DNA of 64,000 nt. Source: a virus. Location of the stretch: the IMG/VR virus record IMGVR_UViG_3300001199_000004, one strand, 5' to 3'. Below are positions 10,340 to 49,967 of the stretch, one piece after another. Position numbers and translations under genes: made by a program. Under the pieces are notes generated by a model, which was given only the letters and a program-made list of their open reading frames with translations, ran no database searches and was not told where the DNA came from. Numbering within the stretch: the first letter of the stretch is position 1; each line of letters starts with the position of its first letter.

Positions 10340-10422
10340 CCCAAACCTCCAAATTTGAATTGTAACGAATTTCTAAAAAAGATGAATATGATATCAAGTT
10401 TTAATTTAGAACGCTTGTATGA

Positions 10423-10449
10423 CCCCTATAGGAATTTATAGGGGCTTTT
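10423..10449. terminator. Hairpin, possible terminator
   Basis: CCCCTATA-GGAATT-TATAGGGG followed by CTTTT on the plus strand. Confidence 0.45.
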
Positions 10450-10501
10450 ATTATGTTTTTAAATGACTTCAATGGTCAATTTAATTGTTCAACCATTCTC
10501 T

Positions 10502-10517
10502 AAGGTACAATCAAATG
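10502..10517 (-). promoter_or_regulatory. Repeated motif, copy 15
   Basis: CATTTGATTGTACCTT; contains the stop of 10511..11188. Confidence 0.7.
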
Positions 10518-11188: not shown

Positions 11189-11196
11189 ATGCACCT

Positions 11197-11212
11197 AAGG
11201 TACAATCAAATC
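11197..11212 (-). promoter_or_regulatory. Repeated motif, copy 16
   Basis: GATTTGATTGTACCTT-AGGTGCAT-ATG. Confidence 0.7.
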
Positions 11213-11319
11213 ATTATCAGAATTTATTGGATCTTTGTCCTAAATTTGTCCCAATCTAAACCGTGTTCTTGTCCTAACTCGTTATAAGACAAGTCCTTAG
11301 GTGTTTTTGAAATTCCACT

Positions 11320-11335
11320 AAGGTACAATCAAATG
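11320..11335 (-). promoter_or_regulatory. Repeated motif, copy 17
   Basis: CATTTGATTGTACCTT in the non-coding region; degenerate copies at 11360-11375 (-) and 11407-11422 (+). Confidence 0.65.
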
Positions 11336-12103: not shown

Positions 12104-12377
12104 ATGAATGGTCACAAGGCATTAAAACCTGAATTTTTTAATGATGTGTATCGAGGTTGTTATTGTCCTGGCTGGCATTGGGTATTAACTAAAGTATCTG
12201 GTGAGATATATCTTTACATTTATCGTAAGACGGTGATGGAGAGGTAATTATCGGAAGCTTTGTTCTGGGGATATTATTTATGATCAATATTATGGTCCTT
12301 CTCATTGGGCGGTAGTGGCTGGTTATTTAAGTTTATTGCCTGATACTCGCAGTATAGATTCGGAGTGGGAAGTATGA
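12104..12377 (+). pseudogene. Frameshifted paralog of 12809..13138 with C-terminal RSIDSEW
   Basis: One frame gives YCPGWHWVLTKV (cf. YLPGCNWKMTKV); after ~12240 another frame gives SGDIIYDQYYGPSHWAV...TRSIDSEWEV* (cf. SGDIIKNQYFGALHWAV...RTIDSEWDY*). Confidence 0.65.
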
Positions 12378-12533: not shown

Positions 12534-12812
12534 TTGATTTCTGGTGATTTGGAAATAATAGATGATTATTTTAGTTGGAACGTGATAACTCCTTATTGGC
12601 ATTTATTCTGCAACGGTAGTTGGCAAAAGGATTCTGGCCCAGCAATTGACCACATTTATTCTTCCTATGAGTCAGCATTAGAAGCATTGGAGCGTTCACG
12701 GGAGGCGATTAAGATGATCCCTAATAGATTTCCTGATTACGAGTTTCATTTAGCCTGTGCGAAGTTACCGTTGAATTGTTCTGAGTTTGAGAGTGAGCAT
12801 ATTATTCCATGA
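12534..12812 (+). CDS. Hypothetical protein; may be the 3' part of a frameshifted gene starting at 12374
   Basis: Frame is open upstream to ~12468; the ATG at 12374 overlaps the previous stop in another frame. Confidence 0.5.
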   Translation: MISGDLEIIDDYFSWNVITPYWHLFCNGSWQKDSGPAIDHIYSSYESALEALERSREAIKMIPNRFPDYEFHLACAKLPLNCSEFESEHIIP

Positions 12813-13138
12813 ATCGTGAAGTAGCTGATTTGATAGCATGGCGTGATTCTCAAGGTTTATCATCAAATAACTTATTGGTTGGTAGGCTTTTGAATGACAA
12901 TTTTTATTTACCTGGATGTAACTGGAAAATGACGAAGGTATTGTGTCATCAAGCTACATTTAATATTGTTTTGAAGCATGGAAATAACAATAAAGAGATG
13001 GAGATAGTGGAATACCAGACATTTAATTCTGGCGACATTATTAAAAATCAATATTTTGGTGCATTGCATTGGGCGGTAAAGGGTGGAGTTATTGTGCCTT
13101 ATTTGGAAAGAACAATAGATTCAGAATGGGATTATTAA
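12809..13138 (+). CDS. Hypothetical protein with C-terminal RTIDSEW tag
   Basis: Ends ERTIDSEWDY*. Confidence 0.7.
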   Translation: MNREVADLIAWRDSQGLSSNNLLVGRLLNDNFYLPGCNWKMTKVLCHQATFNIVLKHGNNNKEMEIVEYQTFNSGDIIKNQYFGALHWAVKGGVIVPYLERTIDSEWDY

Positions 13139-13139
13139 A

Positions 13140-13727
13140 ATGGGCATTGTAGAAAAGACTTCTGCATGGTGGTATAGTGTATTGCGGGATGGTTCTAAAC
13201 TAGAGAAGTGGCTTATTCGTTTATATCAGAACGAATTTGATGCTTATTATAGGTTTAATGATTTTGCGAACAAATATTGTGTGTTTGAGGACGAGCATTG
13301 GTATTTGTTTAAGTTTTTAGCAGAGCAAGAACTTAGACATGCTCATATGGTCTTATCATTGATTAAACTTCGGGGAATTAACGATAAATTACCTATTAAT
13401 TTATTTACAGGTAATTCTCCAGAGCGATATTGGGATTGTGTCTTGCCATGTATAGTGGATTTGTCCACTGCTGCTGGTGTGGGAGCCTTGGCAGAGGGAT
13501 TATCCTTAGAGAGAATGCGGGTGATTATATCAGATCCAGACACACCTAAAGACATTCGGGCATTATTTGAGGCAATCGAGCCTGATGAAGGGGTTCATGC
13601 GAAGGTATTGGGGGTATTGGCGGGGCGTCATGGAATATCTTCTGTAATAGATTGTCACAGTGCTGGATTAGAGGCATTAGGATTGAAGTTAAAAGCGGAC
13701 AAGAAAGCGGACATTGTGTCCGAATAG
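13140..13727 (+). CDS. Ferritin-like di-metal carboxylate protein
   Basis: E...ELRH...E...DEGVH: two ExxH motifs in a helical protein. Confidence 0.7.
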   Translation: MGIVEKTSAWWYSVLRDGSKLEKWLIRLYQNEFDAYYRFNDFANKYCVFEDEHWYLFKFLAEQELRHAHMVLSLIKLRGINDKLPINLFTGNSPERYWDCVLPCIVDLSTAAGVGALAEGLSLERMRVIISDPDTPKDIRALFEAIEPDEGVHAKVLGVLAGRHGISSVIDCHSAGLEALGLKLKADKKADIVSE

Positions 13728-14665: not shown

Positions 14666-14957
14666 GGGCAAACGGGGTCATCACAGGACGACGGACAAGG
14701 TATTGGAGCGGTCGTTATTATGGTTAGAGGGTTTGTCGATAGTATCTAAGGTGGTGATTCATCGGGTGGAGAATTGTCGTCACAAGTATGCTCCTGGTAG
14801 GTTGAGGGTAAGGCGGGTATCTGTTGGTGGATTGATGATCTCTGGTTATATGGGTAGGGGAATAGCGGATATCTTTGTGCATATGTCCTTATCGGACTTA
14901 GATTCATTTAATAAGTTGATGGAGAAGCGGGGCCATGAGACATTATCGGTCGATTGA
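14658..14957 (+). CDS. Basic hypothetical protein (DUF2103-like, tentative)
   Basis: Overlapping ORF; resemblance judged by eye only. Confidence 0.55.
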   Translation: MNKGKRGHHRTTDKVLERSLLWLEGLSIVSKVVIHRVENCRHKYAPGRLRVRRVSVGGLMISGYMGRGIADIFVHMSLSDLDSFNKLMEKRGHETLSVD

Positions 14958-15360
14958 CACTTTCTGGGAGGAAGATGAGGTAATTCATTTGGGAGAGGGA
15001 GAATTGGGTAATTACCGATTAATATTGAATGGGGTGGAGAAATTATTAATTAGTGGAGAGTGTGGTACAGATTTAGTTTTTGGTTATTTATCATCTATTA
15101 ATTTTAGTGGTAAGGTTTCTTTGAGTTATGCGGATTCTGAACATTTGGCATATGACTATGTGTTAAGAGATGGTTTATTGCATAATTTGAATGGTCCTGC
15201 GAAGGTTTGGCATTCTGAGGGAATTAAAGACAGTAAAGGAAGAAGCTATTCTTTTTGTTCATATTATAGGCATGGTAAACCATGGTATTGTATTTTAATC
15301 AAGAACAAACGTTACTATTATGGTCATCACTATAAATTAGTGAATGGTTTAGCGGCATGA
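14935..15360 (+). CDS. RSID-tag family protein 1 (HxxxGPA repeat)
   Basis: YRSIDTFWEEDE; LHNLNGPA; GKPWYC. Confidence 0.8.
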   Translation: MRHYRSIDTFWEEDEVIHLGEGELGNYRLILNGVEKLLISGECGTDLVFGYLSSINFSGKVSLSYADSEHLAYDYVLRDGLLHNLNGPAKVWHSEGIKDSKGRSYSFCSYYRHGKPWYCILIKNKRYYYGHHYKLVNGLAA

Positions 15361-15821
15361 AATATCGTTCTATAGACACGGATTGGGAAGATGATGAAGT
15401 GATTGTTTTTGGCAATCCTGATAATGCCAAAGAGACAATTACTTATATTTTGAGGTTAAATGGTAGTAAACCTAAAAAGTTAATTTGTCATTTTGAGGCA
15501 TTGGGTCCACACTTATTTGATGACACTTTTGATTATGTAGGTTTTTTTGAGTTTAATAGTGCTTCGGCTTATTTTAGGTCCATTAATTTCACAGGTGAAT
15601 ACAGTTTAATTGCTAATTCTAGATATTATGAAGTATTTCACAAAGTAGTAGATGGTCGGCTGCATTGTTTAGATGGTCCTGCGTTGTATTACAGGACGAT
15701 ACATTCTTTAGAAAATACTGATTATGGTTTGGAGGACGAATATGCATTTTATAAAAATGGCAAACCTTGGTATTGTTTGGTGGTCGAAGGGTTGAAGAAG
15801 CATTGGCTCAAAGTATGCTGA
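15357..15821 (+). CDS. RSID-tag family protein 2 (HxxxGPA repeat)
   Basis: YRSIDTDWEDDE; LHCLDGPA; GKPWYC. Confidence 0.8.
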   Translation: MKYRSIDTDWEDDEVIVFGNPDNAKETITYILRLNGSKPKKLICHFEALGPHLFDDTFDYVGFFEFNSASAYFRSINFTGEYSLIANSRYYEVFHKVVDGRLHCLDGPALYYRTIHSLENTDYGLEDEYAFYKNGKPWYCLVVEGLKKHWLKVC

Positions 15822-15842
15822 CACGTATTTTAGAGGCTCATT

Positions 15843-16271
15843 ATGGCCAGCAAATATCGTTCTATAGATGTCCCTTGGGAGCATTCTGAGGTAATTTATA
15901 TTGGTGATGATTCTTCTGATTATTCTATATTTTCATTAGAATTGAATGGAATTAAGAGTGTGGCGATAGTTTATGGGACAAATAATATCCCTGGTTATTT
16001 TGAATCTATTGGGTTTGATGGTGAGCTTTTGGTAAGGGGCAAGGTTAGTTTAAGTGTGTTCAAGTTTAATTCTGGAAGGCTGCATTGTTTAACAGGTCCA
16101 GCGATAGAGCAACAGAGGTTTGGTTATAGTGAATACAGTTGGTACAAACGAGGTAAGCCTTGGTATTGTTTGAAGAATAAAGATGGTAGTCGCTATGGGC
16201 ATTATCATTTAGGTCGTGGAAGGTGGGCATGGTTTGAGGGGGAATTGTGGGATAACACAGATATTTTCTAG
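15843..16271 (+). CDS. RSID-tag family protein 3 (HxxxGPA repeat)
   Basis: YRSIDVPWEHSE; LHCLTGPA; GKPWYC. Confidence 0.8.
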   Translation: MASKYRSIDVPWEHSEVIYIGDDSSDYSIFSLELNGIKSVAIVYGTNNIPGYFESIGFDGELLVRGKVSLSVFKFNSGRLHCLTGPAIEQQRFGYSEYSWYKRGKPWYCLKNKDGSRYGHYHLGRGRWAWFEGELWDNTDIF

Positions 16272-16276
16272 TTCTT

Positions 16277-16516
16277 GTGGAGAGGATGGTATTGATGATA
16301 AAGTATAAGATTAAGCAATTGGTATGGGAGCAGCTTAGTGAGACATGTTGGACGGTGGACACGATATTGGGGAACATTACAGTATCTTGTTCTGATTCAA
16401 CATGGTATTATCACATTAAGGGCAGTGCTGGTTCATGTGTGGATCAGACATCGGCATTTGCTTATGCAACTTCGTGGTATTATGGGAAGCTTAGGGAAGC
16501 ATTGGAAGAAGTATGA
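16277..16516 (+). CDS. Hypothetical protein without the tag
   Basis: Fills the gap in the array; stop overlaps the next ATG. Confidence 0.6.
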   Translation: MERMVLMIKYKIKQLVWEQLSETCWTVDTILGNITVSCSDSTWYYHIKGSAGSCVDQTSAFAYATSWYYGKLREALEEV

Positions 16517-16977
16517 AACACAGGTCAATTGATGCTGGTTGGGACATAGATGAATCAGTTTTTATTTTTGATTTCTGTAGTGAGGGATATTTGTATTTTA
16601 ATGGATTTAAAGTTTATGTTTATGGGGATAGAGGACGGTCATTTAGAGCCAATTTAATTAATAGTGATATTTTAGCATTGGGTTATGGGGATGGTATTTA
16701 TCGTTTTGAATATTTGACCAAAACAGTTGCAAGTAATCGTTATTGGAAAGTTGAATCTGGAAGGGTACAGTTGGGGGCATTTTATTATAATGATGGTTTT
16801 GAACATGGATCTCATTTTTATCATCATTATGTTGATTCTGGTGTGGCTATTATGTTTAAATTTAATAGTCAAGAAATTATTGTCAACAGCGTTGTGCATC
16901 CATTAGATTCTCATTATTATGATATTGTTTCTGCATCTTTTCATGAATTTGTTGGTTATTCGTTGGAGGAAGTGTGA
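16513..16977 (+). CDS. RSID-tag family protein 4
   Basis: HRSIDAGWDIDE; INSDILALGYGDGIYR shared with proteins 5 and 6. Confidence 0.8.
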   Translation: MKHRSIDAGWDIDESVFIFDFCSEGYLYFNGFKVYVYGDRGRSFRANLINSDILALGYGDGIYRFEYLTKTVASNRYWKVESGRVQLGAFYYNDGFEHGSHFYHHYVDSGVAIMFKFNSQEIIVNSVVHPLDSHYYDIVSASFHEFVGYSLEEV

Positions 16978-17480
16978 AATACAGGTCGATTGATGCTTGT
17001 TGGGGTTTGGATGAGACTATTAATCTTTCTAATGGTTTTTGTGGCAATGGATATTTGTACATTAATGGTCTTAAGATAAAAATTTGTGGTGAGAAGAAGG
17101 GGATCAGAATATTTTTAATAAATGCAGATATTTTGTCATTAGGTTTTGGTGACGGGGTATATCGGTATCATACAGATTGGAATTCTGGTGGTTATTATTG
17201 GAAGGTTGTAGATGGCAAGGTATGTTACTCTGGTTGTTTAGTGAAAGATGAAGTTCTTAATCATTTTGTGGCGATGTTTGAAGGTGGAAAGTACAATGTG
17301 ATGTTAGATTTTACGGAGAGGAATAGACTGGGGTTGATAAACAATAAGGAGTTAGTTCCATTACAATTGTTGTTTTTTGGAACTAATGAATATACTAGAT
17401 ATTATTCGATTGTAAGTTCAGTTTTTCGTGAATTTTTTGGCTATTCAATAGAAGAAGAGTATGTATCAAACCCTTCGTAG
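16974..17480 (+). CDS. RSID-tag family protein 5
   Basis: YRSIDACWGLDE; INADILSLGFGDGVYR. Confidence 0.8.
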   Translation: MKYRSIDACWGLDETINLSNGFCGNGYLYINGLKIKICGEKKGIRIFLINADILSLGFGDGVYRYHTDWNSGGYYWKVVDGKVCYSGCLVKDEVLNHFVAMFEGGKYNVMLDFTERNRLGLINNKELVPLQLLFFGTNEYTRYYSIVSSVFREFFGYSIEEEYVSNPS

Positions 17481-17985
17481 TATAGATGCGATTTGGGAGC
17501 AGGAACACGTTTATTTACCATGTTTTGATGGTTATGGTTTTTTATCTTGGACGGTTGACGAGCAAATTAACAGGGTTTATGTTTATGGCACAAGCAAAAA
17601 ATATCAATATAGGACTTATTTGAATAGCCAAGATATTTTGAATTTACATTACGGCAATGGCAAATACTGTATGGTTTATGATAGTTTTGAGAAAAACCAT
17701 GTGTCATTTTGGGAGATAAAAAACAATATAATGATTGATTCAAGTGCATTTTGGATAAAGAATGATTACTTTTGTTTTTCTCCTGACAACAACACTGATT
17801 GCAGTCAAACGATCCGCAACAAGAAAACGAATGATTTGATTAATGTTCGCATAGGTGAACATTATTTTGATATTACCAAAGATTCCTTTAATGTTCATAT
17901 AAAAGAATATTCATATTATCATAATTTGATTAGAGACGGGTTTAAGATGTTTACTGGATTTGATTATGAAAAATGTTTTGCGTAG
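17461..17985 (+). CDS. RSID-tag family protein 6
   Basis: LRSIDAIWEQE; LNSQDILNLHYGNGKY. Confidence 0.8.
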   Translation: MYQTLRSIDAIWEQEHVYLPCFDGYGFLSWTVDEQINRVYVYGTSKKYQYRTYLNSQDILNLHYGNGKYCMVYDSFEKNHVSFWEIKNNIMIDSSAFWIKNDYFCFSPDNNTDCSQTIRNKKTNDLINVRIGEHYFDITKDSFNVHIKEYSYYHNLIRDGFKMFTGFDYEKCFA

Positions 17986-18470
17986 TATAGATGCTGATTG
18001 GGAAGAGGATGAAATGATTATAGTTGGAACAATTCCAGAATTTTCCAATAGTATGAGTTTTGAATGTTATGTGAACGGTAAATTCAAGAGATATTTATTT
18101 AATGTAGAAACATCTGTTTATCATCATGATTATGGGGTGGTGAATGGTGTTGTTCGAGGGAGAAGATACCATCATCAGCATAAAACAACTGATAAATACA
18201 TTAGAACTGATTACATAACTTTTTTATCAAGATGGCAAATTACACAATGTCGATGGTCCTGCGGTAATATCTGTATGTGATTATGCTGTTTTTCAGTTTT
18301 ACAAACGTGGTAAGCCTTGGCTGGTGATTAATAGCGATGATAACGATGGCAGATTCAAATACAGATTTAACTGTATGGTGGTAACTTGGGAAAATTTAGA
18401 GAATTATCGGCATACGCTTTTGGGTAATTTGTTTTCTACTTTGGGCGATTATGAGAAGTATAGATGCTGA
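17966..18470 (+). pseudogene. RSID-tag family protein 7, frameshifted at a T6 run (18220-18225)
   Basis: LRSIDADWEEDE; removing one T gives ...ITFYQDGKLHNVDGPA...KRGKPW... ending at 18470. Confidence 0.75.
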
Positions 18471-18849
18471 TTGGGAAGAGGACATCCATTTTTTTGATAA
18501 TGGAGGGTTTCTTGTAGACGTTTATTTTGGCCGAAAAAAATATAGTTTTAGTCTTCCTGATTCTTGGAATTACACATATTATTATTTTATGCGTCCCCCT
18601 AATTCTGTTGAATCTTACAGTGGATTGGTATTTGCTTGTGGATTTAATGGACATAGAGATATAATAGTTCAATTGAAGTTAAAAAAGAGTAAGCCAGTTT
18701 CTTTACATTCTAGGCATGGAACTTCTTATCTTTTTAACTGGTATCAAAATGGAGATCTTATAAGGGCAATTAGCACGGATATTAAGGATGCTTTTAATTA
18801 TCAAAAGTATATAGATGAGTTTGAAGAGGTATGTTTAGATTATGAATAA
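18451..18849 (+). CDS. RSID-tag family protein 8
   Basis: MRSIDADWEED. Confidence 0.8.
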   Translation: MRSIDADWEEDIHFFDNGGFLVDVYFGRKKYSFSLPDSWNYTYYYFMRPPNSVESYSGLVFACGFNGHRDIIVQLKLKKSKPVSLHSRHGTSYLFNWYQNGDLIRAISTDIKDAFNYQKYIDEFEEVCLDYE

Positions 18850-19231
18850 GTATCGTTCGATAGACAATTCATGGGATTTGGATGAATTTCATTGTGGAAT
18901 GAATGCTAAATGTTATGTGAATGGGGAATTGAAGGCTAAATTGCTTCCTGGCGGCGTTTTTTATTTCAACGGTGGTTTATTGGTTGAGAAGTTATTATTT
19001 CCTTATTATGGTGGTGGCTCTTATAAGATAATTGAGGACTTTCATTTAAATTTAACTATAGTACGAACAACAACATTAGTTAAGACAGATTCATTGGGCA
19101 AGATATTGATAAATAGTTGGCGTTGTGGGGATAATACCTTATATTTTTATTTTGAGCATAAGAATAAGGTACAAATGATGAGTTATGATTTTGAAGTGTT
19201 TGGCGGTAAATTACAAGAAAAAGGATGGTGA
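18842..19231 (+). CDS. RSID-tag family protein 9 (may continue into 19185..19403 by frameshift)
   Basis: YRSIDNSWDLDE; the overlapping downstream frame ends inside the next tag. Confidence 0.7.
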   Translation: MNKYRSIDNSWDLDEFHCGMNAKCYVNGELKAKLLPGGVFYFNGGLLVEKLLFPYYGGGSYKIIEDFHLNLTIVRTTTLVKTDSLGKILINSWRCGDNTLYFYFEHKNKVQMMSYDFEVFGGKLQEKGW

Positions 19232-19380
19232 GTTAGCGAATGCTTTATATTGGCCTGATAAAAACATAACTTTGAATGACGCATCTAATGATGTGTATAA
19301 TTCTGAGTTGAAGGAATATTTTGCGGATTACTTTCAGAATTTGTGTTCTGAGATTTCGTTGTATGAAATGGAGATAGATG

Positions 19381-19727
19381 ATGTCTCATTATCGGTCGAT
19401 TGATGCTGATTGGGATTCAGAGATCCACCATTTAGATTGTTATAATCCTTTTAAATCGGCAATATAAATATATTTTTAGAATTTTTGGTAGATGAAATCA
19501 CAATAGAAGTTTATGGTTCAATTTACAAGAAAAAAGCCGAATATGTACGTGCCAGTTTTAGTAGCACTACTGGCATAAATAGAGGTTTTTATGAATATCA
19601 TTATACAAAATCTTGTAGAACTAAGGCGGCTGGCAGTATGGAGCCTTCATGGTTGACAGAAGAGTTGGGAGACTACAACTTTTATGCATCCTTATTAGAG
19701 GAATACAGCATTTATGAGAAGTATTGA
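19381..19727 (+). pseudogene. RSID-tag family protein 10, internally deleted or truncated
   Basis: MSHYRSIDADWDSE stops at 19467; 19485..19727 is homologous to the C-terminal half of 19714..20313. Confidence 0.7.
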
Positions 19728-20316
19728 TGCTCCTTGGGGTCAAGACGAGGTTTTCTATTTAGATTCTCCGCCTTGTATAGAATATAAGTTTCAATTTAAT
19801 GGTCAGTCGCAAACATGTTTTCTGAATGGCCACAATGATTTAGCAGAAAGGCTTGAATTTATTGTAAAAAAGACAAAAGACACATTACAGACTGGTTATT
19901 ATAAGTTTGTGGGGATTGATTCAACATATCTTTCGACACATTTTATATTTATAGAACATGGCAATTTACGTTGCAACTGGGTTCCAAGAACAATAAATTT
20001 TAACACTTTGGGAGTTCCCAACAACCCCAATGCGATTATGAATTTGGGGTTTTTGGTAGATAACATTGAAATAGGGGTTTATGGTTCCATTTATTCCAAA
20101 AAGTCTAAGGATTGGATTTATGGGAAGAAGGCTGAGATGGTACGAGCAACTTTTAATTCTGCAGAAGGGACATACGAGTATCACTACACGAAATCTTGTA
20201 GAACTAAGGCTAGCATGGCGGCGGAGCCTGCATGGTTGACAGAAGAGCTATTGGCTGATTACAATCATTATGCTTCATTATTGGAGGAATACAGCATTTA
20301 TGAGAAGTATTGATGC
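19698..20316 (+). repeat. Direct-repeat pair (33-nt exact core at 19698-19730 and 20284-20316)
   Basis: GAGGAATACAGCATTTATGAGAAGTATTGATGC occurs twice, with imperfect similarity extending upstream. Confidence 0.85.
19714..20313 (+). CDS. RSID-tag family protein 11
   Basis: MRSIDAPWGQDE. Confidence 0.8.
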   Translation: MRSIDAPWGQDEVFYLDSPPCIEYKFQFNGQSQTCFLNGHNDLAERLEFIVKKTKDTLQTGYYKFVGIDSTYLSTHFIFIEHGNLRCNWVPRTINFNTLGVPNNPNAIMNLGFLVDNIEIGVYGSIYSKKSKDWIYGKKAEMVRATFNSAEGTYEYHYTKSCRTKASMAAEPAWLTEELLADYNHYASLLEEYSIYEKY

Positions 20317-20815
20317 GGTGTGGGAGAAATCTGAGCTTATTTACATTGATAAAAAAGGCAAAGATTTACTTTTGGTTATTGAAGAGAATGGCCAAGAGAC
20401 TTGGTTTTGTTATGATCAGAGTCAAATTGCTTCAAAGCACATAATTGATGAAAAGATATCTAATTTTTTGATTAGTTATTTTAGAGACGGCAATATTAGA
20501 TTACAAAAATTGTTGGACCCAGAATTGCCTTTTACAGAGGTTCAACAAAATATTGTTATTTTGAAGTTAAAAGACGGTAAACTGTTGGATGGTCCGTCTT
20601 ATATCTCATTTTTCAATGACATTGTTATTTCTGTTAGCATTATTGAGAACAATAACCCTGTTAAGACCATAAGTTGTTTTAAACATGGTAAAATTAAAGT
20701 TGGCAGTTATAATGAAAAAACTTTAATAGGTCAATATATTGACCATTTAAAAGGGGGAACTTTTTATGCTTGCTATGCTGCCGAACTAGCTGCCATTGGC
20801 CCTAATTTTGCTTAA
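20300..20815 (+). CDS. RSID-tag family protein 12 (start revised)
   Basis: MRSIDAVWEKSE. Confidence 0.8.
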   Translation: MRSIDAVWEKSELIYIDKKGKDLLLVIEENGQETWFCYDQSQIASKHIIDEKISNFLISYFRDGNIRLQKLLDPELPFTEVQQNIVILKLKDGKLLDGPSYISFFNDIVISVSIIENNNPVKTISCFKHGKIKVGSYNEKTLIGQYIDHLKGGTFYACYAAELAAIGPNFA

Positions 20816-20830
20816 CTGGGAGCATATGAA

Positions 20831-21322
20831 ATGCGTTCTATAGGAAATTTACGATCTATAGATTTCCCTTGGGGAGAGGATCAGGTTGTTTATTTTGATT
20901 GTGATAGTGATGATTTTGGGATAGAGCGATGGGATTGTTATAACAATGGGCACAAGTTTATTCTTTTCCATTCAGAGAAAAAACCATTAAGTCAAATAAA
21001 GTTTGCTAAAAATGGTTTGGTGATTGCCCAAAAAACCATTCAAGGGCCAGGAAAAAAGTATTATGATTATGCTAATTTATGGTATAATAATGGTTTGTTG
21101 CATAATTCAAATGGGCCTGCAATAGTTTACAATACCAATTGGGGAAATGGTTGGTTTTTTTCATGGTATATGAATGGCAAGCCTTGGAAGTGTGGCAAAC
21201 ACGGTCACAGGTTTAATTGCAAGCAAGAGAATGTCCTTTATGAGAAAATATATCAGGACAGACGACGGATTTACATAAAAGATTTAGTGAATAATTTCCA
21301 TGGAAAAATACCGATCAATTGA
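20831..21322 (+). CDS. RSID-tag family protein 13 (HxxxGPA repeat)
   Basis: MRSIGNLRSIDFPWGEDQ (partly duplicated tag); LHNSNGPA; GKPW. Confidence 0.8.
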   Translation: MRSIGNLRSIDFPWGEDQVVYFDCDSDDFGIERWDCYNNGHKFILFHSEKKPLSQIKFAKNGLVIAQKTIQGPGKKYYDYANLWYNNGLLHNSNGPAIVYNTNWGNGWFFSWYMNGKPWKCGKHGHRFNCKQENVLYEKIYQDRRRIYIKDLVNNFHGKIPIN

Positions 21323-21908
21323 TGCCAATTGGGAGCAGGACGAACATCTTTACATAGATGATTGTGGGGAACTGCAGGAATACTTGTTTAACGGCAGAAA
21401 ACATTATGCTATTGTAAGCAATAAAATTGACGATTATTTTTATTCCAATTCTTCTTCTAATATTGCCCAACGAATTGTTGATGCAACTCGTACTGATTTT
21501 GACACTGGCATGTATCAATTTAATTATATGAATGACATGTATTTTTGGATTTACAATTCTACTTTAGGGGCACATAACAAACCTGAAAGCTTGTTTGTAG
21601 CTCCATTGTCGCACTATTCGATTAATTTCAACAAAAAGCTTCAAAAGTTATCTCAAATTTCTGGTACAATGGAGAATGGTCGGCGATCAAAAGCATTTAA
21701 CTTACAATACCATCATTCCAATGAGTCTTGGGCGTTCAATTTGCATGTTGACGGCACAATTAAGATTAGTTCTAAGCCCAATACCACTTACATGACGCTT
21801 GACCAAAAAAGTGATTTGCCACAATGGTTTAAGAAGTGTAAAAAAGAGTATTCAGATTATGTCCAAATTGTCGAAGACGTTTTTGCCAAAATACCGCTCG
21901 ATAGATAG
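21300..21908 (+). CDS. RSID-tag family protein 14
   Basis: YRSIDANWEQDE. Confidence 0.8.
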   Translation: MEKYRSIDANWEQDEHLYIDDCGELQEYLFNGRKHYAIVSNKIDDYFYSNSSSNIAQRIVDATRTDFDTGMYQFNYMNDMYFWIYNSTLGAHNKPESLFVAPLSHYSINFNKKLQKLSQISGTMENGRRSKAFNLQYHHSNESWAFNLHVDGTIKISSKPNTTYMTLDQKSDLPQWFKKCKKEYSDYVQIVEDVFAKIPLDR

Positions 21909-22431
21909 TTCTTGGGATGGGGACGAAGTTGTTATTTTGCCATTGGCAAGTGGAGGCATACCCAGAAGGGCATCTGTAGTATATCATACTACTTCTTTTG
22001 GTAAAATAAAATATCTTGTTTATTATGGTATGAAATTTCAGATTTATCGACATTTTGCCAATGGTTTAGTTTGGATTGAAAAAACCTATATCGACAATTG
22101 GGAGGACAATGCCAAACAATTAGTTTTGGTTAAAGACGGTTATTCTGTATTTACCTTAAGACATAATTCTGGGATTTTACATGAAGTTTGTTTTCATCAT
22201 CAAGGCAATAAACTAAGCGGTATTCTCAATAAAAGCACAACTCAAGGAATTGGGGTGGAATACGCTGTAGTTTATGGCCCTTATTTATCTTTTTGTGTAA
22301 ATGAATTGGGTTCTAAAAACCATGAAATGACACGTATGATTGTTTATAAGGAGAAATCTTTTTCTTATTATAATAAATGTTTTAACATTTATCAGAGATA
22401 TTTAGAGGCTAGACTAAATGAGATCCATTGA
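21883..22431 (+). CDS. RSID-tag family protein 15 (start TTG 21883 or ATG 21859)
   Basis: KYRSIDSSWDGDE; C-terminal KSFSYYN shared with protein 16. Confidence 0.75.
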   Translation: MPKYRSIDSSWDGDEVVILPLASGGIPRRASVVYHTTSFGKIKYLVYYGMKFQIYRHFANGLVWIEKTYIDNWEDNAKQLVLVKDGYSVFTLRHNSGILHEVCFHHQGNKLSGILNKSTTQGIGVEYAVVYGPYLSFCVNELGSKNHEMTRMIVYKEKSFSYYNKCFNIYQRYLEARLNEIH

Positions 22432-22966
22432 TACTCCCTGGGAAAAAGATGAGATTTTATTTTTAGGTGAGAAACACCGATGTAAAGTACAGACGGGTGA
22501 ATCTTATGTTGTTGTTTATGATGACATGCAAAAAGTTTGTGAATATTTTGGGTCAGGCATTTTGATTCTTTCGTGTTTTGCATCTTCACATGCCCAATTA
22601 ACAGCCTATTTGGAATCGTGTACCCCCTCTAGATGTATTAGGGTTAAAAACGGCAAAAGTCATTCTTTCATGATTACAAACAATGACAATCTTTTATCTG
22701 TTGGGTTTAATAGGCCAAAAGAAAAGTTGTTTAAAATATCTAAAAACGATTACAAAGATGATAGAGGCTATTTTTACAGGCTTATTTTTAAGCAGGATAA
22801 TGGCGGGGAAACTACAAACGTGTCAATTCATAAAGATAAAAAACCGCCTGATTACCAACACAATGGCTACAGAATTAAAATAAAATCTTTCTCATATTAT
22901 AATAGGTTATTTAATTTATATGAGGGAATATTAAAAGATGCGTTCAATAGATGCACAATGGGATGA
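22418..22966 (+). CDS. RSID-tag family protein 16
   Basis: MRSIDTPWEKDE. Confidence 0.8.
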   Translation: MRSIDTPWEKDEILFLGEKHRCKVQTGESYVVVYDDMQKVCEYFGSGILILSCFASSHAQLTAYLESCTPSRCIRVKNGKSHSFMITNNDNLLSVGFNRPKEKLFKISKNDYKDDRGYFYRLIFKQDNGGETTNVSIHKDKKPPDYQHNGYRIKIKSFSYYNRLFNLYEGILKDAFNRCTMG

Positions 22967-23450
22967 AGATGAAGTTGTTGATTTGGGTGGTAAGTATTTG
23001 TACCAAGTTCAATATGGACAATCTCACAAACAACAGGTAAAATCCAAACAAGATCCTCAAGACAAATATGGTTATGCCCGAGACGTTTTTAACTATTACA
23101 AGCCATTTGTGGATGGCAAACTAGATGTTTTTTATGAAGACAGGTTGGCTAGTTCTTTTTGGTTTAAAGATGGTTGTTTGCACAATCCATATGGTCCTGC
23201 CAAGTTGGTTTATCGAAAATGCGGCAATATGGTATTTGAGTGGGTACTAAATGACAAGAGATTTGCATTAAGGGCGGATAAGATTGTCAGCATTGGCGGG
23301 AGCATTAGAATGGGTGAACGGCGGCTGCATATTATGAAACAAGGGGTTAACGGTTGTGTTGTTTCTTTTTTAACAAAAGAAAAGAATAAGTCTGAACATT
23401 ATTTCTTCCGTATTTACGACGAATTAATCAATGAATACAAGAAGCATTGA
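22938..23450 (+). CDS. RSID-tag family protein 17 (HxxxGPA repeat)
   Basis: MRSIDAQWDEDE; LHNPYGPA. Confidence 0.8.
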   Translation: MRSIDAQWDEDEVVDLGGKYLYQVQYGQSHKQQVKSKQDPQDKYGYARDVFNYYKPFVDGKLDVFYEDRLASSFWFKDGCLHNPYGPAKLVYRKCGNMVFEWVLNDKRFALRADKIVSIGGSIRMGERRLHIMKQGVNGCVVSFLTKEKNKSEHYFFRIYDELINEYKKH

Positions 23451-23919
23451 CACTCCTTGGGAAGACATGGGGACAGTCTATTTCGATGGGGACGAGGAAT
23501 GTTTGGTGGAGAATTTGGACACAAAGGAAATTTTTAGATTTGGTTGTTCCTGTTATTCACTTTTGGACGTTTTTGATAAGTCAATCAACAAGTTTTCAAT
23601 TTTTTTATTTAACTATTTCATAGATGGCAGCTTTGAATTACGCCACAACAACTACATTTCCATTAAATTTAGGTTGTTTAATAGGAAATTGGCGAATGGA
23701 GCTTCTGTGATTAGTAATTTTGGCGGAGAGGCTGTATCGGTTGCTTGGTATCACAATGGTTCTTTTGTTAAAAAAATATGTCAAAACAGCAGGGGAGAAA
23801 CAGTTTCTCTTATTAAGAGAAATTCTTATGGTACAATAGTGACAGAGACTTTTAGCAGCAAACAAGACAGCAAAAGAAAACAGTTACTATCTATTTTGGG
23901 TCAATATGCGAAGCATTGA
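23431..23919 (+). CDS. RSID-tag family protein 18
   Basis: TRSIDTPWED. Confidence 0.8.
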   Translation: MNTRSIDTPWEDMGTVYFDGDEECLVENLDTKEIFRFGCSCYSLLDVFDKSINKFSIFLFNYFIDGSFELRHNNYISIKFRLFNRKLANGASVISNFGGEAVSVAWYHNGSFVKKICQNSRGETVSLIKRNSYGTIVTETFSSKQDSKRKQLLSILGQYAKH

Positions 23920-24439
23920 TGAGGATTGGGAGTCTGGGGATGTTATTTATTTGGATGATATTGAAAAATGCACAAAAACCCATGTAGTCAAAGTTAATGG
24001 TGAAAAAAATTATCTTTATGTAAATCCTATTAAAAAAGGATTGTTGGAAGAAGTAATAAAAATTTTCCCCAATGGAAAAATTACTTTACATTATACGGAT
24101 TTAGATTTCAACATAACTTGTTCGGTTAAAAATGGTAAATACATAAAAGGCACGCCAACAATTGGAGATTCTAAATTATCGACAATTATTTATTGGTTTG
24201 ATGAAAATGGCAAGAGAATAACTATTGATGGGATAAATCAATTTGACTTTCACAAACACAATGAATCAATCGAAATATCTTTTGCTCTCAAACATCGAAC
24301 TAAAGAACTTAAAATGATTGTTTCCAAAAATGATAAGCCTTATTTTAGGGGTCGTGGTCGGTACTTGAAAAGGTTTATGTGTTGTGATATAAAAGACTAC
24401 GCATACTATGCAGATTTAATCCATTCCATTGTACCTTAA
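23906..24439 (+). CDS. RSID-tag family protein 19
   Basis: MRSIDEDWESGD; ends IHSIVP* inside a motif copy. Confidence 0.8.
   Translation: MRSIDEDWESGDVIYLDDIEKCTKTHVVKVNGEKNYLYVNPIKKGLLEEVIKIFPNGKITLHYTDLDFNITCSVKNGKYIKGTPTIGDSKLSTIIYWFDENGKRITIDGINQFDFHKHNESIEISFALKHRTKELKMIVSKNDKPYFRGRGRYLKRFMCCDIKDYAYYADLIHSIVP
24422..24437 (+). promoter_or_regulatory. Repeated motif (CC variant)
   Basis: CATTCCATTGTACCTT-AAACACT-ATG. Confidence 0.75.
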
Positions 24440-24444
24440 ACACT

Positions 24445-25011
24445 ATGAATATTTATCGTTCTATAGATAGCTCTTGGGACCATTCGGACACGATTTTCTT
24501 GGCCGAGGGACAAGATATTGTCCCTATACGAGTAGAAAACGATAAACATAAATACACTATTTATGTGTCAGAAAAAACTATTGCTTGCAAAAACGTATTT
24601 ACAACTATTTTATCTAATGTTGGGTTTACTGGTCAGATTAGTGTTCAACTTCCTGATGGTGGTGAAGTTTATTATGGTTGGGCACAAAACAACAAACTTC
24701 ACAGAGAAGATGGTCCTGCGTTCATTAAAATGTCTTCTTTAGAAGGCCCCGTTCTTGCTGTTCAATGGCTGTTAAATGGCACATTTGATACGAGTATCAA
24801 CAATTATTTAGTTGGCATTGATAGGCTGGCTCTAAGTTTAAAATTCTTTTACAGAATAGGGTTGGAAAAGTTCCAAATTATCCGTAGTGATCGTTCTTCT
24901 AGTGAGGTTGAAACTGCTCCGATGGGTTTAAAAGAAGTTATCAATAAGCATTCGGAGATTGATTTCAAAACTTGGGACACCTTATTAAATACTTATAATC
25001 CAAACTTATGA
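24445..25011 (+). CDS. RSID-tag family protein 20 (HxxxGPA repeat), probably leaderless
   Basis: YRSIDSSWDHSD; LHREDGPA. Confidence 0.8.
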   Translation: MNIYRSIDSSWDHSDTIFLAEGQDIVPIRVENDKHKYTIYVSEKTIACKNVFTTILSNVGFTGQISVQLPDGGEVYYGWAQNNKLHREDGPAFIKMSSLEGPVLAVQWLLNGTFDTSINNYLVGIDRLALSLKFFYRIGLEKFQIIRSDRSSSEVETAPMGLKEVINKHSEIDFKTWDTLLNTYNPNL

Positions 25012-25592
25012 ACAGGTCTATTGATGCCATTTGGGATGCAGATTTTTGCAGCAGCAATGGAATTATTGATTTGGGTGGAAAAAAACAACGTCATTTCATG
25101 ATGGAATTTAATAGAATTCCATATTTGCTTAAAACAAGAGTTGCTTTTGAAAAAGAAGAATTGGCGAAAACAATAGTTTGTGGCCACGTTAAATTACAAT
25201 TGCCCATTGTAGAATCCATTCATGAAAATACCAAAGAATTAATTTCTGAGTTTAAAATAACCAGAAAATTTGGAGAAATGAGCAATGATTACAACAAAAG
25301 AAATTATAACATATATTTGTTTAGTGAGGGTCGATTGCATCATGATATTTTGCCAGCTTATGTTTGCGTCCGGCTTAAGTCAGCTTATTATGCAAGTTGG
25401 TATCTAAAAGGGAAAATGGTCAAAACATTGGACGAAACCATAGTGGGGGGGTCTAATGTTAAAAAAAGAAGATGGCATTTAGATCAAGAAGGTTTTGGGC
25501 ATTTTTTGATTGATGATGATTTTATTCATGAATTTGCAGAGCTTGACAGAAAGTTAATTAATGGAGATTTATATGACGAATTCACAAGCTAA
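25008..25592 (+). CDS. RSID-tag family protein 21
   Basis: NRSIDAIWDAD; LHHDILPA...WYLKG. Confidence 0.8.
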   Translation: MNRSIDAIWDADFCSSNGIIDLGGKKQRHFMMEFNRIPYLLKTRVAFEKEELAKTIVCGHVKLQLPIVESIHENTKELISEFKITRKFGEMSNDYNKRNYNIYLFSEGRLHHDILPAYVCVRLKSAYYASWYLKGKMVKTLDETIVGGSNVKKRRWHLDQEGFGHFLIDDDFIHEFAELDRKLINGDLYDEFTS

Positions 25593-25869
25593 GTGGTATA
25601 TTCATCATTTTGCTGATTATCATGAAATTAACGACATTGGAGAATATAAATCCATTGAATTAGGTTGTTTTCCAACCAAAGAATCCAGCTATCATCGTTA
25701 TTTTGGATTGTTTTATACAGGCCGTAAACCAGGAGCAGATAAGGTGTTAGATGCTGTTTTAGGCTTGGTTGATGTAATAGTTGCTCCAAAGAACGAAGAG
25801 GACTACGATGAAACAACAACTACGGCAAATGAAGTGAAAGAATCCATTAGACTTGCATTGAAAAATTAA
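25573..25869 (+). CDS. Hypothetical protein without the tag
   Basis: GGAG SD before MTNSQA. Confidence 0.65.
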   Translation: MTNSQAKWYIHHFADYHEINDIGEYKSIELGCFPTKESSYHRYFGLFYTGRKPGADKVLDAVLGLVDVIVAPKNEEDYDETTTTANEVKESIRLALKN

Positions 25870-25911
25870 AAATGCTAAACTATGGAATCATCCTCAACAA
25901 AAGGTAAAAAC

Positions 25912-26742
25912 ATGAGTGAAGAAGCAGAAAAGATTATGGGCAGTATTGGCAAAAAACCCGCCATTGTATTTGCCTTCGATACTACTGGATCTATGTCGGG
26001 CTGTATAGCCAATGTAAGAAAAAACATTAAAGAATTAGCTGAAAAGCTATTTGAAGAAATCCCTGGGTTAAAGATGGGTTTAATTGCTCACGGTGATTAT
26101 TGTGATGGCGAGAAATGCTATCAACAATTAGATTTGACTGGTGAGATTAGCGATATCATTAATTTCATTGAAAAAAACCATACTACTTCTGGTGGTGATG
26201 CCGATGAATGTTATGAGTATGTTTTCCGAAGAGCCATTGAATTGAGTTGGCCTGAAGAGGGTGGCACACTTGTTATGATTGGGGATTGTGCCCCTCATGA
26301 TGAAGCCTATTATGCTAATTTCAATAACTTTTCAACGTCATATTCTGGGGCTCGTGAATATTTCAATCCCATCCAAGAGACTAAGGTATCTGATCCAGTT
26401 CCTTTCATTGATTGGAAGGTTGAATTAGAGAATTTAAAAGCCAAGAACATTGAAGTTTTTGGGGTACAATGTATGAAGATGGATGCTTCCTATCGCAGTA
26501 AAGAAAATCAATTTTGGGAAGGAATTGGTCAAATTGCTGGAACACCATTGATTATCATGGATAATTTCCAAGATAGTTATCAGACATTAGGGAGCATTAC
26601 CCGTGCTACTTTGTCGGATTCTGATGAAGATGTTGAAAGCTATGTTAGAACGGCAACTTGTTCTGTTGCAAATGCAGCTAGTTATTCTGACAATGTTTCT
26701 AAATTATCTGCTTATCGCAGTAGTAAGAAATCTAAAGAATAA
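25912..26742 (+). CDS. von Willebrand factor A (vWA) domain protein
   Basis: FAFDTTGSM MIDAS-like motif; GDYCD; GGDADECYE; VMIGDCAPH. Confidence 0.85.
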   Translation: MSEEAEKIMGSIGKKPAIVFAFDTTGSMSGCIANVRKNIKELAEKLFEEIPGLKMGLIAHGDYCDGEKCYQQLDLTGEISDIINFIEKNHTTSGGDADECYEYVFRRAIELSWPEEGGTLVMIGDCAPHDEAYYANFNNFSTSYSGAREYFNPIQETKVSDPVPFIDWKVELENLKAKNIEVFGVQCMKMDASYRSKENQFWEGIGQIAGTPLIIMDNFQDSYQTLGSITRATLSDSDEDVESYVRTATCSVANAASYSDNVSKLSAYRSSKKSKE

Positions 26743-26764
26743 ATTTCATAACAATTGAAATGAG

Positions 26765-26798
26765 GAAATGCCGCTCTATATGAGCGGTATTTCTATTT
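26765..26798 (+). terminator. Intrinsic terminator after the vWA gene
   Basis: GAAATGCCGCTC-TATAT-GAGCGGTATTTC then TATTT. Confidence 0.7.
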
Positions 26799-26800
26799 AT

Positions 26801-27454
26801 ATGCGACAATTAAGTAAATACCGTAGTATTGATGCTCTTTATGACAGAGATGAAGTTATCATCTTGGATGGCATAGGTCATCTTCAAACAATTGTGGTTG
26901 ATGGAATAGAACAAAAAGTTTTGAGTAAACAAATTCTGAGAAATGCTCCACATCATCTGCATATTCCATTTTTAAGCACATCTATTGGAGATGCTGCTAA
27001 ATTAAAAACAATAATGCATTATTTTGTTTCATTTAGAGACAATTATAAAATAATGACTTTGTTTCAAAAGGTTGAAATTAGTGATGAAACCAGTTGGTTA
27101 ATTTATCATCCAAAAAAAGTAATTGCCATTATGGTGGCAAATGTTAACAGATATAGACATTATGTGGCTTATTACTTGAATGACAAAAATGAAGTTTTTA
27201 AGGTAAAAGGAAAATTTGTACGGCTTGAACACAAAAAATTGGCCATTTATAAATGTTTTGAATTTTTAGTTAAAAACGATGAAATTCATTGCGAAGACAA
27301 ATGGGCCGCAAAAATAAAAATGAATCAAGATGGCAGAACAGAAGAAATATTTTTCTGGTTTCAAAATAATCATTTACATAATATGACTGGTCCTGCAGTG
27401 ATTCATAGAGATGAAAAACATTATTTTACTCATGGAATAGAGTATAAACCATGA
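26801..27454 (+). CDS. RSID-tag family protein 22 (start revised; HxxxGPA repeats)
   Basis: KYRSIDALYDRDE; IHCEDKWA; LHNMTGPA. Confidence 0.8.
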   Translation: MRQLSKYRSIDALYDRDEVIILDGIGHLQTIVVDGIEQKVLSKQILRNAPHHLHIPFLSTSIGDAAKLKTIMHYFVSFRDNYKIMTLFQKVEISDETSWLIYHPKKVIAIMVANVNRYRHYVAYYLNDKNEVFKVKGKFVRLEHKKLAIYKCFEFLVKNDEIHCEDKWAAKIKMNQDGRTEEIFFWFQNNHLHNMTGPAVIHRDEKHYFTHGIEYKP

Positions 27455-27825
27455 CACGTTCCATTGACGCGGCTTGGGGAGAAGACGACGTTATTTTCCT
27501 GCCTAATTACGGACAATATTACATTGATATTCTCCATAATAACATGAAAAAAAGGGTTTATTATGAAGAGTCTAAAACGGCTGGTCCTTTATTTTTAGAT
27601 GTATTGGAAGCTATTAAGTCCATTTTGTTGGATGGGACAATAGTTCATAATGTTGGCCCTGAAGATATCATCACTTTTACTATTGTGAGTGGAGAATATC
27701 ATAGCATTGATGATAATCCTTCATTTTTATGGACTAGACCAGGAGAAAAAACGATAGCAAAATGGCACAACTATGGGACTATAATTAAATTAGAAAATAC
27801 TTTGATTGGACCGAGAGTATTATGA
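27451..27825 (+). CDS. RSID-tag family protein 23
   Basis: TRSIDAAWGEDD; YHSIDDNPS...WHNYG. Confidence 0.8.
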   Translation: MTRSIDAAWGEDDVIFLPNYGQYYIDILHNNMKKRVYYEESKTAGPLFLDVLEAIKSILLDGTIVHNVGPEDIITFTIVSGEYHSIDDNPSFLWTRPGEKTIAKWHNYGTIIKLENTLIGPRVL

Positions 27826-28508
27826 AAAGCATACGTTCTATTGATTCAACTTGGGATGAGGATGATTTAATTTCTTTTGATGAAAACGAAGGGACCAAGC
27901 ACACAGTTGTTTTTTACGCCAATGGTTGTAAAAAGCAATTTATCTGTTATAGTCCTAGCATGTATCAGGGAGTGGGTACAGAACAAATATTGGGCTATTG
28001 CCGACAGCTAGGAAACATCTTTCAAAACTCTGAAATCGTCATACCAGATAATGAATTTTCCTTGAGGATTAAAGCTAGATTTAAGGATGGTTTACTTCAT
28101 AACGAAACTAGTTGGGCTCTTGAGACTGCTTATGGGCCAAAAGAACCAATAGTTAAAAAAGAATGGTATTGTCAGGGTCAAAAACACAGTTATAATGATT
28201 GCCCGTCTATTGTTTTTCCTAATTTTACCTTAACTTGGCATGAAATGGGTTATGAAAATGTTTATAGGGTTGGCAAACCTTGTGTGATTTATCCCCCATC
28301 TATTCATGGATATGATAAAGTATTGATTACTATTGGGTTTAATGACAAAAAATATGTAACAATGCCCCTTTGTACACAAGAAAAAATCACCCCAGATGAG
28401 CTAGTCAAATATGAGCCCAAATATTTTGATTATGTGGATTATGATAAGTTTGTAGATTATGTAGCATATTTGAAAGAATCATCTAAGGGCATCAAAAATG
28501 AAGCATAG
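27822..28508 (+). CDS. RSID-tag family protein 24 (degenerate HxxxGPA repeats)
   Basis: IRSIDSTWDEDD; LHNETSWA; HSYNDCPS. Confidence 0.8.
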   Translation: MKSIRSIDSTWDEDDLISFDENEGTKHTVVFYANGCKKQFICYSPSMYQGVGTEQILGYCRQLGNIFQNSEIVIPDNEFSLRIKARFKDGLLHNETSWALETAYGPKEPIVKKEWYCQGQKHSYNDCPSIVFPNFTLTWHEMGYENVYRVGKPCVIYPPSIHGYDKVLITIGFNDKKYVTMPLCTQEKITPDELVKYEPKYFDYVDYDKFVDYVAYLKESSKGIKNEA

Positions 28509-29301
28509 AAATATTGATGCACCTTGGGATACAGATGAACCTTATGTTCGCATTAACCCCTCTGCTCCATATAAAGAGGTTAAATACAACGATCACAAAG
28601 GATTTGTAGCTGGTCCTGTTGTGGATGTTAAAAATGGACAAGTTGTATTAAACAATGATTTTTGGAATGCGTTCAATCATTTCAATCAAGTGTCATTTGG
28701 TGAATATACAATAGAAACAAAAAACAGTTTTATTAGTGGCAATTACGATTCTTCAAAAACAAGTATTAATCGTATTTATTATTTTAATGAACATGGGGCG
28801 GCTTATAATTTGGAAATTTATAGCCCAAGCAATACAAAACCCACATATTTAATTAATGATTGTGATGTCATTTCTACCATAAAAAAATTGGATCAATCGC
28901 ATAAAGCGACATTTACTTTTGGCGAATATGGTGAAATTGAATTGTTTGGAGAATGCACTGTGAGTGGAATAAAATGTTATTTCACAAATGGCAAACCTTG
29001 TGGAAATGCAGGTATTTATCAGTATAATGATGGTGAATTAGATTGTGATAATTTATGGAAAAAACTATCAAAAAATTATTTGTCTGATGAATCTATTGGC
29101 AAAGTAGCATATAATTTATGGGAAGCCACAGGTAGATTAGAGGGACAAAGTGAAAAAAACTGGAGAGACGCCAAGTGGCAAATGGAGACTTTACTAGAAG
29201 TGGATTATGATATTTACAAAGATTTAGGTCTTGTTTGGCCTGGGAACGCAAAACAAATTATTAAAACCTTATTTTATGGCATTCTTCATGAAACGGCTTA
29301 G
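28498..29301 (+). CDS. RSID-tag family protein 25 with DUF2934-like segment
   Basis: HRNIDAPWDTDE; IGKVAYNLWEATGRLEGQSEKNWRDAKWQ. Confidence 0.75.
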   Translation: MKHRNIDAPWDTDEPYVRINPSAPYKEVKYNDHKGFVAGPVVDVKNGQVVLNNDFWNAFNHFNQVSFGEYTIETKNSFISGNYDSSKTSINRIYYFNEHGAAYNLEIYSPSNTKPTYLINDCDVISTIKKLDQSHKATFTFGEYGEIELFGECTVSGIKCYFTNGKPCGNAGIYQYNDGELDCDNLWKKLSKNYLSDESIGKVAYNLWEATGRLEGQSEKNWRDAKWQMETLLEVDYDIYKDLGLVWPGNAKQIIKTLFYGILHETA

Positions 29302-49448: not shown

Positions 49449-49967
49449 ATGAAAAAGAATAAGATCCCATTGCGTTCTATTGATGATCGTTGGGAAACCG
49501 ACGAGTATATTTTAATTCAATTTGATGAAAATGGAAAAATTGCCGAACAGGAAATAACCATTTGGGATAGCGACAGAAAGGTTAACTTCAAGGCATTAGT
49601 CCTTAATAAAGATGCTTTTGATATTCCTCAACTGCTAATTGATTATGTTTGTAATGGCAAAGTAAAGATAAATAGAGGCGGAGCTTGGCAAACTTGGGTT
49701 TATTTTGAAAACAATATTGTTCATCGTACTGATGGGCCTGCCCTGATTTCAAGAACTAAGGATGGTAAGTATCAATCATGGTTCAAACATGGTCTTTATC
49801 ATAGAGAAGATGGGCCTGCCAGAACAACACCTTCAGTAAACATGTGGTATATTGATGGTGCAATACAAAAAACTGAATGTACTTTAAAAAACTTACCAGA
49901 AGAACTAATGAAGGATTCATCTCCAAAAAACATAGATCCAGAAACAGGATTGAAATATGACATTTGA
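49449..49967 (+). CDS. RSID-tag family protein 26 (outlier; two HRxDGPA repeats)
   Basis: LRSIDDRWETDE; VHRTDGPA; YHREDGPA. Confidence 0.8.
   Translation: MKKNKIPLRSIDDRWETDEYILIQFDENGKIAEQEITIWDSDRKVNFKALVLNKDAFDIPQLLIDYVCNGKVKINRGGAWQTWVYFENNIVHRTDGPALISRTKDGKYQSWFKHGLYHREDGPARTTPSVNMWYIDGAIQKTECTLKNLPEELMKDSSPKNIDPETGLKYDI

Follow-up and report, generated by a model that had tools for sequence, protein, structure and literature searches.

Why should a phage begin 25 tandem genes with the same short peptide? The question is raised by a 64,000-nt stretch of viral DNA (IMG/VR record IMGVR_UViG_3300001199_000004; hereafter the window), in which a tandem array between 14935 and 29301 encodes proteins sharing the N-terminal motif R-S-I-D-x-x-W, here called the tag. 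The window belongs to a 167-kb contig of a huge phage, the tag scans of this phage cover these 64 kb, and accessory genes (ligase, Thg1, helicase, HNH and similar) lie in it. Six-frame scans placed the tag at the start or end of the protein in 28 genes, 26 times at the N-terminus and twice at the C-terminus. The array accounted for 25 tagged starts, 23 with an exact R[ST]IDxxW and two with variants (RSIDxxY at 26822 and RNIDxxW at 28507), and one further tagged start was found outside it (motif at 49473). An earlier reading made from the letters alone (the sequence-only reading) had counted 25 tandem genes and one at 49449, and this count holds, with 0.067 motif matches expected by chance per 64-kb window (60 Markov simulations). 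All N-terminal copies are on the plus strand, with the motif 1–12 codons downstream of the assigned start codon. Six arginine and six serine codons encode the tag and, because both codon families are used for each residue, selection acts on the peptide, as had been argued earlier from the same pattern. A repeat or recombination site at the DNA level was ruled out, as the codons vary freely. Among the tags compared, R, I and D were each present in 45 of 45 and W in 44 of 45; the tag is the best conserved part of the proteins, and the full motif reads (aromatic/hydrophobic)-R-S-I-D-x-x-W.

The tag also ends proteins. Two paralogous frames upstream of the array terminate in the motif (12348 and 13109); the 12809 protein had no homologue and no usable Atlas match. 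In a 343-kb phage (G001), all three motif matches end unrelated proteins within 13 residues of the stop. A complete 533-kb relative (G002), to which 13 window proteins match at 27–50% identity, gave 18 motif matches versus one control, and 16 of the 18 were at most 20 residues from the stop, where 15.5% of positions lie; one was N-terminal, on a piece of SSB (the protein that binds single-stranded DNA), one was internal, and two variant tags occurred beyond the 18. Five matches were found in G003 and two each in G005 and G009. C-terminal tags follow a basic linker (42% lysine or arginine in the six residues before the R), and a tyrosine precedes 20 of 26. In a control set of 47 other large-phage records, 16 matches were counted versus 10 controls, and one record of this set, G012, carries real variant tags. 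A relaxed pattern gave 27 matches versus 5 controls in 23 records, and terminal variants in relatives read RTLDDEW, RDLDDDW, RSITDPW and RDVDAPW. Judged from the sequences, the general core of the tag is R-[STD]-[ILV]-[DTN]-x-x-W. A first pattern with extra acidic residues had returned mostly chance matches (one of nine viral loci was a true tag), and a metagenome scan covering 10 of 64 parts revealed no array among 120 loci. The motif thus far ends unrelated proteins in the window and in at least 10 other phage records or bins, and the view that the tag is a separate, portable module at either protein end is well supported by these comparisons.

The position of the copies bears on the possibility that the motif is an address, sending cargo into the capsid or a phage compartment in the style of T4 internal proteins. 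A constant short peptide on polymorphic tandem proteins is the T4 internal-protein layout, and T4-like head genes occur in the clade. Most copies outside the window, however, are C-terminal, where a cleaved signal would be N-terminal; two tagged G002 proteins start with hydrophobic, membrane-like segments (by eye), the array sits among small accessory genes, and another gene of the window, at 61687, starts with a different N-terminal motif that resembles the T4 signal. An address function is improbable, and the capsid-packaging version of it is disfavoured. The gene in question (61687–63849) encodes a 720-aa acidic protein with no PHROG match, whose N-terminal motif is distinct from the RSID tag and resembles a T4-type capsid targeting signal.

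The relatives further revealed what the tag is fused to. Their tagged bodies match the major head protein, head protease, SSB and PrkA in PHROG or Pfam. Five tagged excerpts in G002 tile much of its own 478-aa capsid protein at 43–88% identity (residues 55–102, 218–310, 316–368, 400–448 and 436–463), and its other tagged bodies correspond to the prohead protease, a gp32-like SSB and the C-terminal domain of PrkA. The tagged bodies of G001 include SSB and a domain that is ParB-like by eye, and in three further relatives a variant tag ends five of nine capsid-fragment loci. The design that joins an excerpt of capsid or head protease to a common terminal peptide is found in G001, G002, G005 and others. 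Together with the array, these excerpts show that the clade puts one tag on two kinds of body, namely pieces excerpted from conserved proteins and the expanded beta-meander scaffold of this lineage, described below. Sliding-clamp binding motifs are expected on a phage's own replication proteins; this identity is not supported for the tag, which is absent from the C-termini of the G002 polymerase, helicase, primase and others, and no clamp family was found among 144 shared proteins scanned. Relatives also contain untagged capsid-derived genes of 124–373 aa (L396, L397, L403, L404, L406 and L411), a second class of capsid paralogues. The main texts of PMC8346664 and PMC12363816 did not bear out a description of capsid fragments from Lak phages.

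The excerpts could be explained if the tagged proteins were immune decoys, with a body that imitates a trigger or sensor of defence, or binds to one, and a tag that locks a conserved part of the host defence, without degradation. Excerpts of capsid, SSB and head protease are enriched among the tagged bodies, 10.1101/2022.08.27.505566 reports that defence systems are triggered by capsid and by SSB, and duplication together with gene loss in the array is as expected in conflict. A decoy alone, however, does not need a shared tag, and PrkA pieces, a ParB-like domain, and small Cys-rich and hydrophobic-ended proteins are too varied for one sensor; we consider decoys unlikely. The tag could also be a degron or poison tag, through which the tagged protein itself and any capsid or SSB assembly that it joins would be rapidly destroyed, for instance against a co-infecting relative. 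Its terminal position behind a disordered basic linker would suit a degron, the excerpts have diverged from the phage's own capsid protein (43–88%), and an SSB-like body ends in the tag at 225 aa, compared to 327–343 aa for the full-length SSBs of relatives. This explanation is hard to credit, as it leaves unexplained why 26 long-lived, individually conserved scaffold paralogues carry the tag, and it overlaps the explanation favoured below, from which it is set apart mainly by the fate of the tagged protein, consumed or not.

Beyond the tag, the array proteins share, in order, an acidic patch, a strand, an NG hairpin, a helix and a meander that often includes an LHxxxGPA repeat. When profiles were built from window sequences alone, about 10 of 25 tagless bodies beat decoy sequences. 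When orthologues were added, with the whole subfamily kept out of training and the two most broken genes excluded, 16 of 24 tagless window bodies were outscored by at most one of 1,234 null sequences; the eight that were not recognised are 16522, 16983, 17476, 18854, 21895, 22421, 26822 and 28507. As judged by these profiles, the array is mostly one very divergent paralogous family, and the earlier statement that the bodies can be aligned only within small subgroups was not borne out. The sequence-only reading had proposed a constant docking tag on a library of variable domains; the tag half of this proposal survives, in that the tag is portable, sits on unrelated proteins and is coil in the models, and the other half gives way, as the array bodies are mostly one family.

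Two modelled members align at about 23%, yet they have the same order of elements (mean pLDDT, the predicted local distance difference test, 79.6 and 83.7), and the predicted fold of the family is a MORN-like beta-meander. The closest folds to both models in Foldseek, all of them weak matches, were MORN and F-box + MORN proteins of giant viruses, and the nearest named Atlas cluster, MORN_2 at 0.82, is a lead only. The MORN profiles PF02493 and PF07661 gave no Pfam match at E ≤ 0.05 among 33 proteins scanned. PHROG returned just two weak matches of unknown function among array members, the PDB had no match at E < 0.1, and INPHARED had none for the two array members searched; these searches gave array members no named family. 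The tag itself had no secondary structure in either model, with a block pLDDT of 54–58 compared to about 90 for the core. The motif could in principle be merely the first element of the array fold, since conservation runs on into the first strand and the array is for the most part one family. However, the same motif ends unrelated proteins in the window and the other phages and is coil in both models, which makes this very improbable.

When 1.84 billion proteins were searched with a profile of the first 35 residues, 31 matched, all with an N-terminal tag; 17 of them are window proteins and the other 14 are relatives. Five more came from other searches. Ten relatives that were looked up sit on contigs of at least five sizes, and in a tree most relatives paired with a single window gene with strong support, with the deep branches left open. 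Frameshifts break three genes of the array (near 18218, 19220 and 19460). The groundwater metagenome run X1 contains this stretch of DNA, and its contigs have the same letters at the frameshifts, and the orthologue P0031 is intact across one of them. Assembly error as a cause of the frameshifts is not supported, although the X1 comparison is not independent because X1 may be the source of the window. These data describe an old array that continues to turn over.

Two untagged genes interrupt the array, a 102-aa gene and a gene for a vWA-domain protein. The latter suggested that the metal site of the vWA protein might be liganded by the Asp of the tag, the vWA gene being inside the array and its G002 homologue (43%) about 5 kb from a tagged gene. 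However, 80 vWA loci of other viruses had no tagged neighbour within 4 kb, variants from G054 and G012 have Thr or Asn in place of the Asp, and G001, which is 69% complete, is tagged and has no match to the window vWA protein; we give this idea almost no weight. A ferritin/rubrerythrin-like gene (Pfam E 0.0013, below the cut-off) occupies 13140–13727, after the pair with C-terminal tags and ahead of the array.

As far as sequences and models tell, the anatomy of the tag is that of a short linear docking motif. It recurs on unrelated folds at both termini (array scaffold, capsid, protease, SSB, PrkA and ParB-like), is predicted to be coil, has a basic linker and keeps R, I, D and W nearly invariant. 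The simplest reason for such constancy would be one shared reader, and the tag very probably binds one; among the roles listed in the sequence-only reading, a motif that binds one shared partner fits best. The bodies are probably binders, and oligomeric-protein excerpts and MORN-like sheets are plausible in this role. Combining the two, the tagged proteins could well be two-part adaptors, the reading that we favour with some reserve. The variable body would bind a target, the tag would dock every tagged protein on one shared reader, with a protease or unfoldase as the candidate, and whatever the body has bound, for instance a host sensor of capsid or SSB or the assemblies of a rival phage, would be removed or remodelled. 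We favour adaptors that bring targets to a protease or unfoldase because both capsid and SSB have been reported to trigger defence and a ClpCP adaptor from a phage has been described. That the reader is a protease or AAA+ unfoldase which removes or remodels the bound targets is, by this analogy, a tentative possibility. More speculative still, and on balance doubtful, is a degrader library that can be programmed, as a counterpart of the F-box in bacteria, in which an eight-residue tag would recruit the protease or unfoldase and be fused to baits that remove immune sensors or rival-phage assemblies, the baits being excerpts of capsid, SSB, head protease and PrkA or 26 evolved binder scaffolds. 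A ClpP-like protease gene was found in 6 of 19 clade records searched (49–79% identity), and the one in G002 (L274:15748-16347) is about 2 kb from two tagged genes, one of them a PrkA fragment.

Several results weigh against the adaptor reading. The protease step is a hypothesis by analogy, for which the reader is only a candidate, and ClpP-like genes are also present in G016 and G018, both with 0 strict tags. Four of the nine capsid-fragment loci in the three further relatives have no tag, and the window has no capsid-excerpt gene. Among 36 records chosen by capsid similarity a strict match was found in 8, the other 28 being mostly short fragments. The fold matches are weak (all E ≥ 0.011 and query template-modelling score ≤ 0.33 in Foldseek), and low terminal pLDDT is common with shallow alignments, which here had 31 and 33 rows.

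The features of the window are collected in Table 1.

Table 1. Coordinates of tagged genes, array interruptions and one promoter-like motif copy in the 64-kb window
Feature	Coordinates	Strand	Remarks
Open frame ending in tag (C-terminal, 12348)	12237..12377	+	Paralogue of 12809; 5′ part apparently in another frame (putative frameshift)
109-aa protein ending in RTIDxxW (C-terminal tag, 13109)	12809..13138	+	No match from array profiles
Tagged member, MORN-like LHxxxGPA repeat	14935..15360	+	Orthologue P0025
Tagged member, LHxxxGPA repeat	15357..15821	+	
Tagged member, modelled, mean pLDDT 79.6, tag coil	15843..16271	+	Orthologue P0029
Tagged member	16513..16977	+	Paralogue of 16974; tagless body not recognised
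Tagged member	16974..17480	+	Tagless body not recognised
Tagged member	17461..17985	+	Tagless body not recognised
Tagged member, frameshifted near 18218	17960..18470	+	Intact orthologue P0031 covers both frames
Tagged member, family body	18451..18849	+	
Tagged member	18842..19403	+	First frame ends 19231, second frame continues (putative frameshift); body not recognised
Broken, shortened duplicate of 19714 gene	19381..19727	+	28-codon tagged frame and 3′ piece in another frame
Tagged member	19714..20313	+	Orthologue P0037
Tagged member, family body	20300..20815	+	
Tagged member, LHxxxGPA repeat	20831..21322	+	Orthologue P0034
Tagged member, modelled, mean pLDDT 83.7, tag coil	21300..21908	+	Orthologues P0009, P0011, P0015
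Tagged member	21859..22431	+	Related to 22418; tagless body not recognised
Tagged member	22418..22966	+	Orthologue P0006; tagless body not recognised
Tagged member, LHxxxGPA repeat	22938..23450	+	
Tagged member, family body	23431..23919	+	
Tagged member	23906..24439	+	Orthologues P0026, P0030
Promoter-like motif copy ATT[TC][GCA]ATTGTACCTTA	24423..24438	+	Directly upstream of gene 24445
Tagged member, LHREDGPA repeat	24445..25011	+	Orthologues P0003, P0004, P0040
Tagged member, family body (borderline)	25008..25592	+	
Untagged 102-aa gene within array	25561..25869	+	
Untagged vWA-domain gene within array	25882..26742	+	Common in other large phages without tagged neighbours
Variant tag RSIDxxY	26768..27454	+	LHxxxGPA repeat close to C-terminus
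Tagged member	27451..27825	+	Orthologue P0023
Tagged member	27822..28508	+	Orthologue P0028
Variant tag RNIDxxW	28498..29301	+	DUF2934 close to C-terminus; orthologue P0033; body not recognised
Dispersed tagged member, two HRxDGPA repeats	49449..49967	+	

Other observations were made on the window and its relatives. A 16-nt motif, ATT[TC][GCA]ATTGTACCTTA, occurs 28 times by strict pattern, 15 times on the minus strand (54–11334) and 13 times on the plus strand (24423–53669), so oriented that the copies point away from about 11.3 kb. A partial palindrome often follows it, most copies come right after a stop and before small genes, and it is nearly absent from G001, G002 and G003; it is probably a phage promoter or a cassette boundary. 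A protein that is sigma-factor-like by eye (35064–35987), with no PHROG match and 27% identity to a G002 protein, is a candidate reader of this repeated motif. An actin-like protein (Pfam Volactin, E 1e-72) is encoded in G002 (L277:11591-12592) and G001 (L229:5587-6594) and is 73% identical between these distant huge phages, and a 2H phosphoesterase matching Pfam Acb1, directed against the cyclic oligonucleotide-based antiphage signalling system (anti-CBASS), is encoded at L278:3003-3569 of G002 and is common to G001. Further relatives were found in G007, which is a Chloracidobacterium bin, and in G008, where an Acidobacteriaceae contig ends in one. The last 44 kb of G008:C5 (L439-L441) are a close G002 relative, its capsid gene fragmented, fused to an Acidobacteriaceae chromosome; the join may be a chimera or a decayed prophage, a chimera being possible because it falls within phage structural genes and is accompanied by a step in guanine-cytosine content from 0.60 to 0.50.

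These results describe a phage clade in which one short peptide serves again and again as a plug; it is carried by dozens of unrelated proteins, among them pieces of the clade's own essential proteins. Finding the partner of the peptide would make many genes of unknown role testable in one experiment. With a protease as the reader, the system would be a natural form of targeted degradation of bacterial-cell proteins and could serve as a tool as it stands; with a defence component as the reader, the baits would map which phage proteins hosts sense.

The array and its tag are not a member of a described family, and the feature is larger than first noted; a full-text search of mostly open literature found no paper on the motif or the design. 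The closest likeness is to the F-box + MORN-repeat proteins of Pandoravirus, Marseilleviridae and Pithovirus, which are also expanded families that join a constant N-terminal module to a variable MORN-type beta-meander, and which were the top fold matches of both array models, with weak scores. In contrast to the F-box, the tag is a linear motif of 8–11 residues that is also found C-terminally on other folds, and array members have no F-box (no Pfam match, and an N-terminus of coil followed by a strand in both models). Bacteria are not known to have the Skp1-cullin-F-box (SCF) ligase. For the giant-virus proteins, a role in subverting host ubiquitination has been proposed in PMC5753266. In PMC6873191, Gp53 of SPO1 is an adaptor-like phage protein for ClpCP, and the likeness lies in the docking of an accessory protein of a phage on an AAA+ protease of its host, the role proposed here. 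Gp53 as described there is a single protein, whereas here the motif is common to dozens and the protease role is proposed only. The T4 capsid targeting sequence is likewise a short constant peptide on small polymorphic proteins from tandem loci. It has another sequence, and the strictly N-terminal position of a T4-type signal is not seen here, where 16 of the 18 G002 copies and two window copies are C-terminal; the tag can stand at either terminus and, in relatives, stands mostly at the C-terminus.

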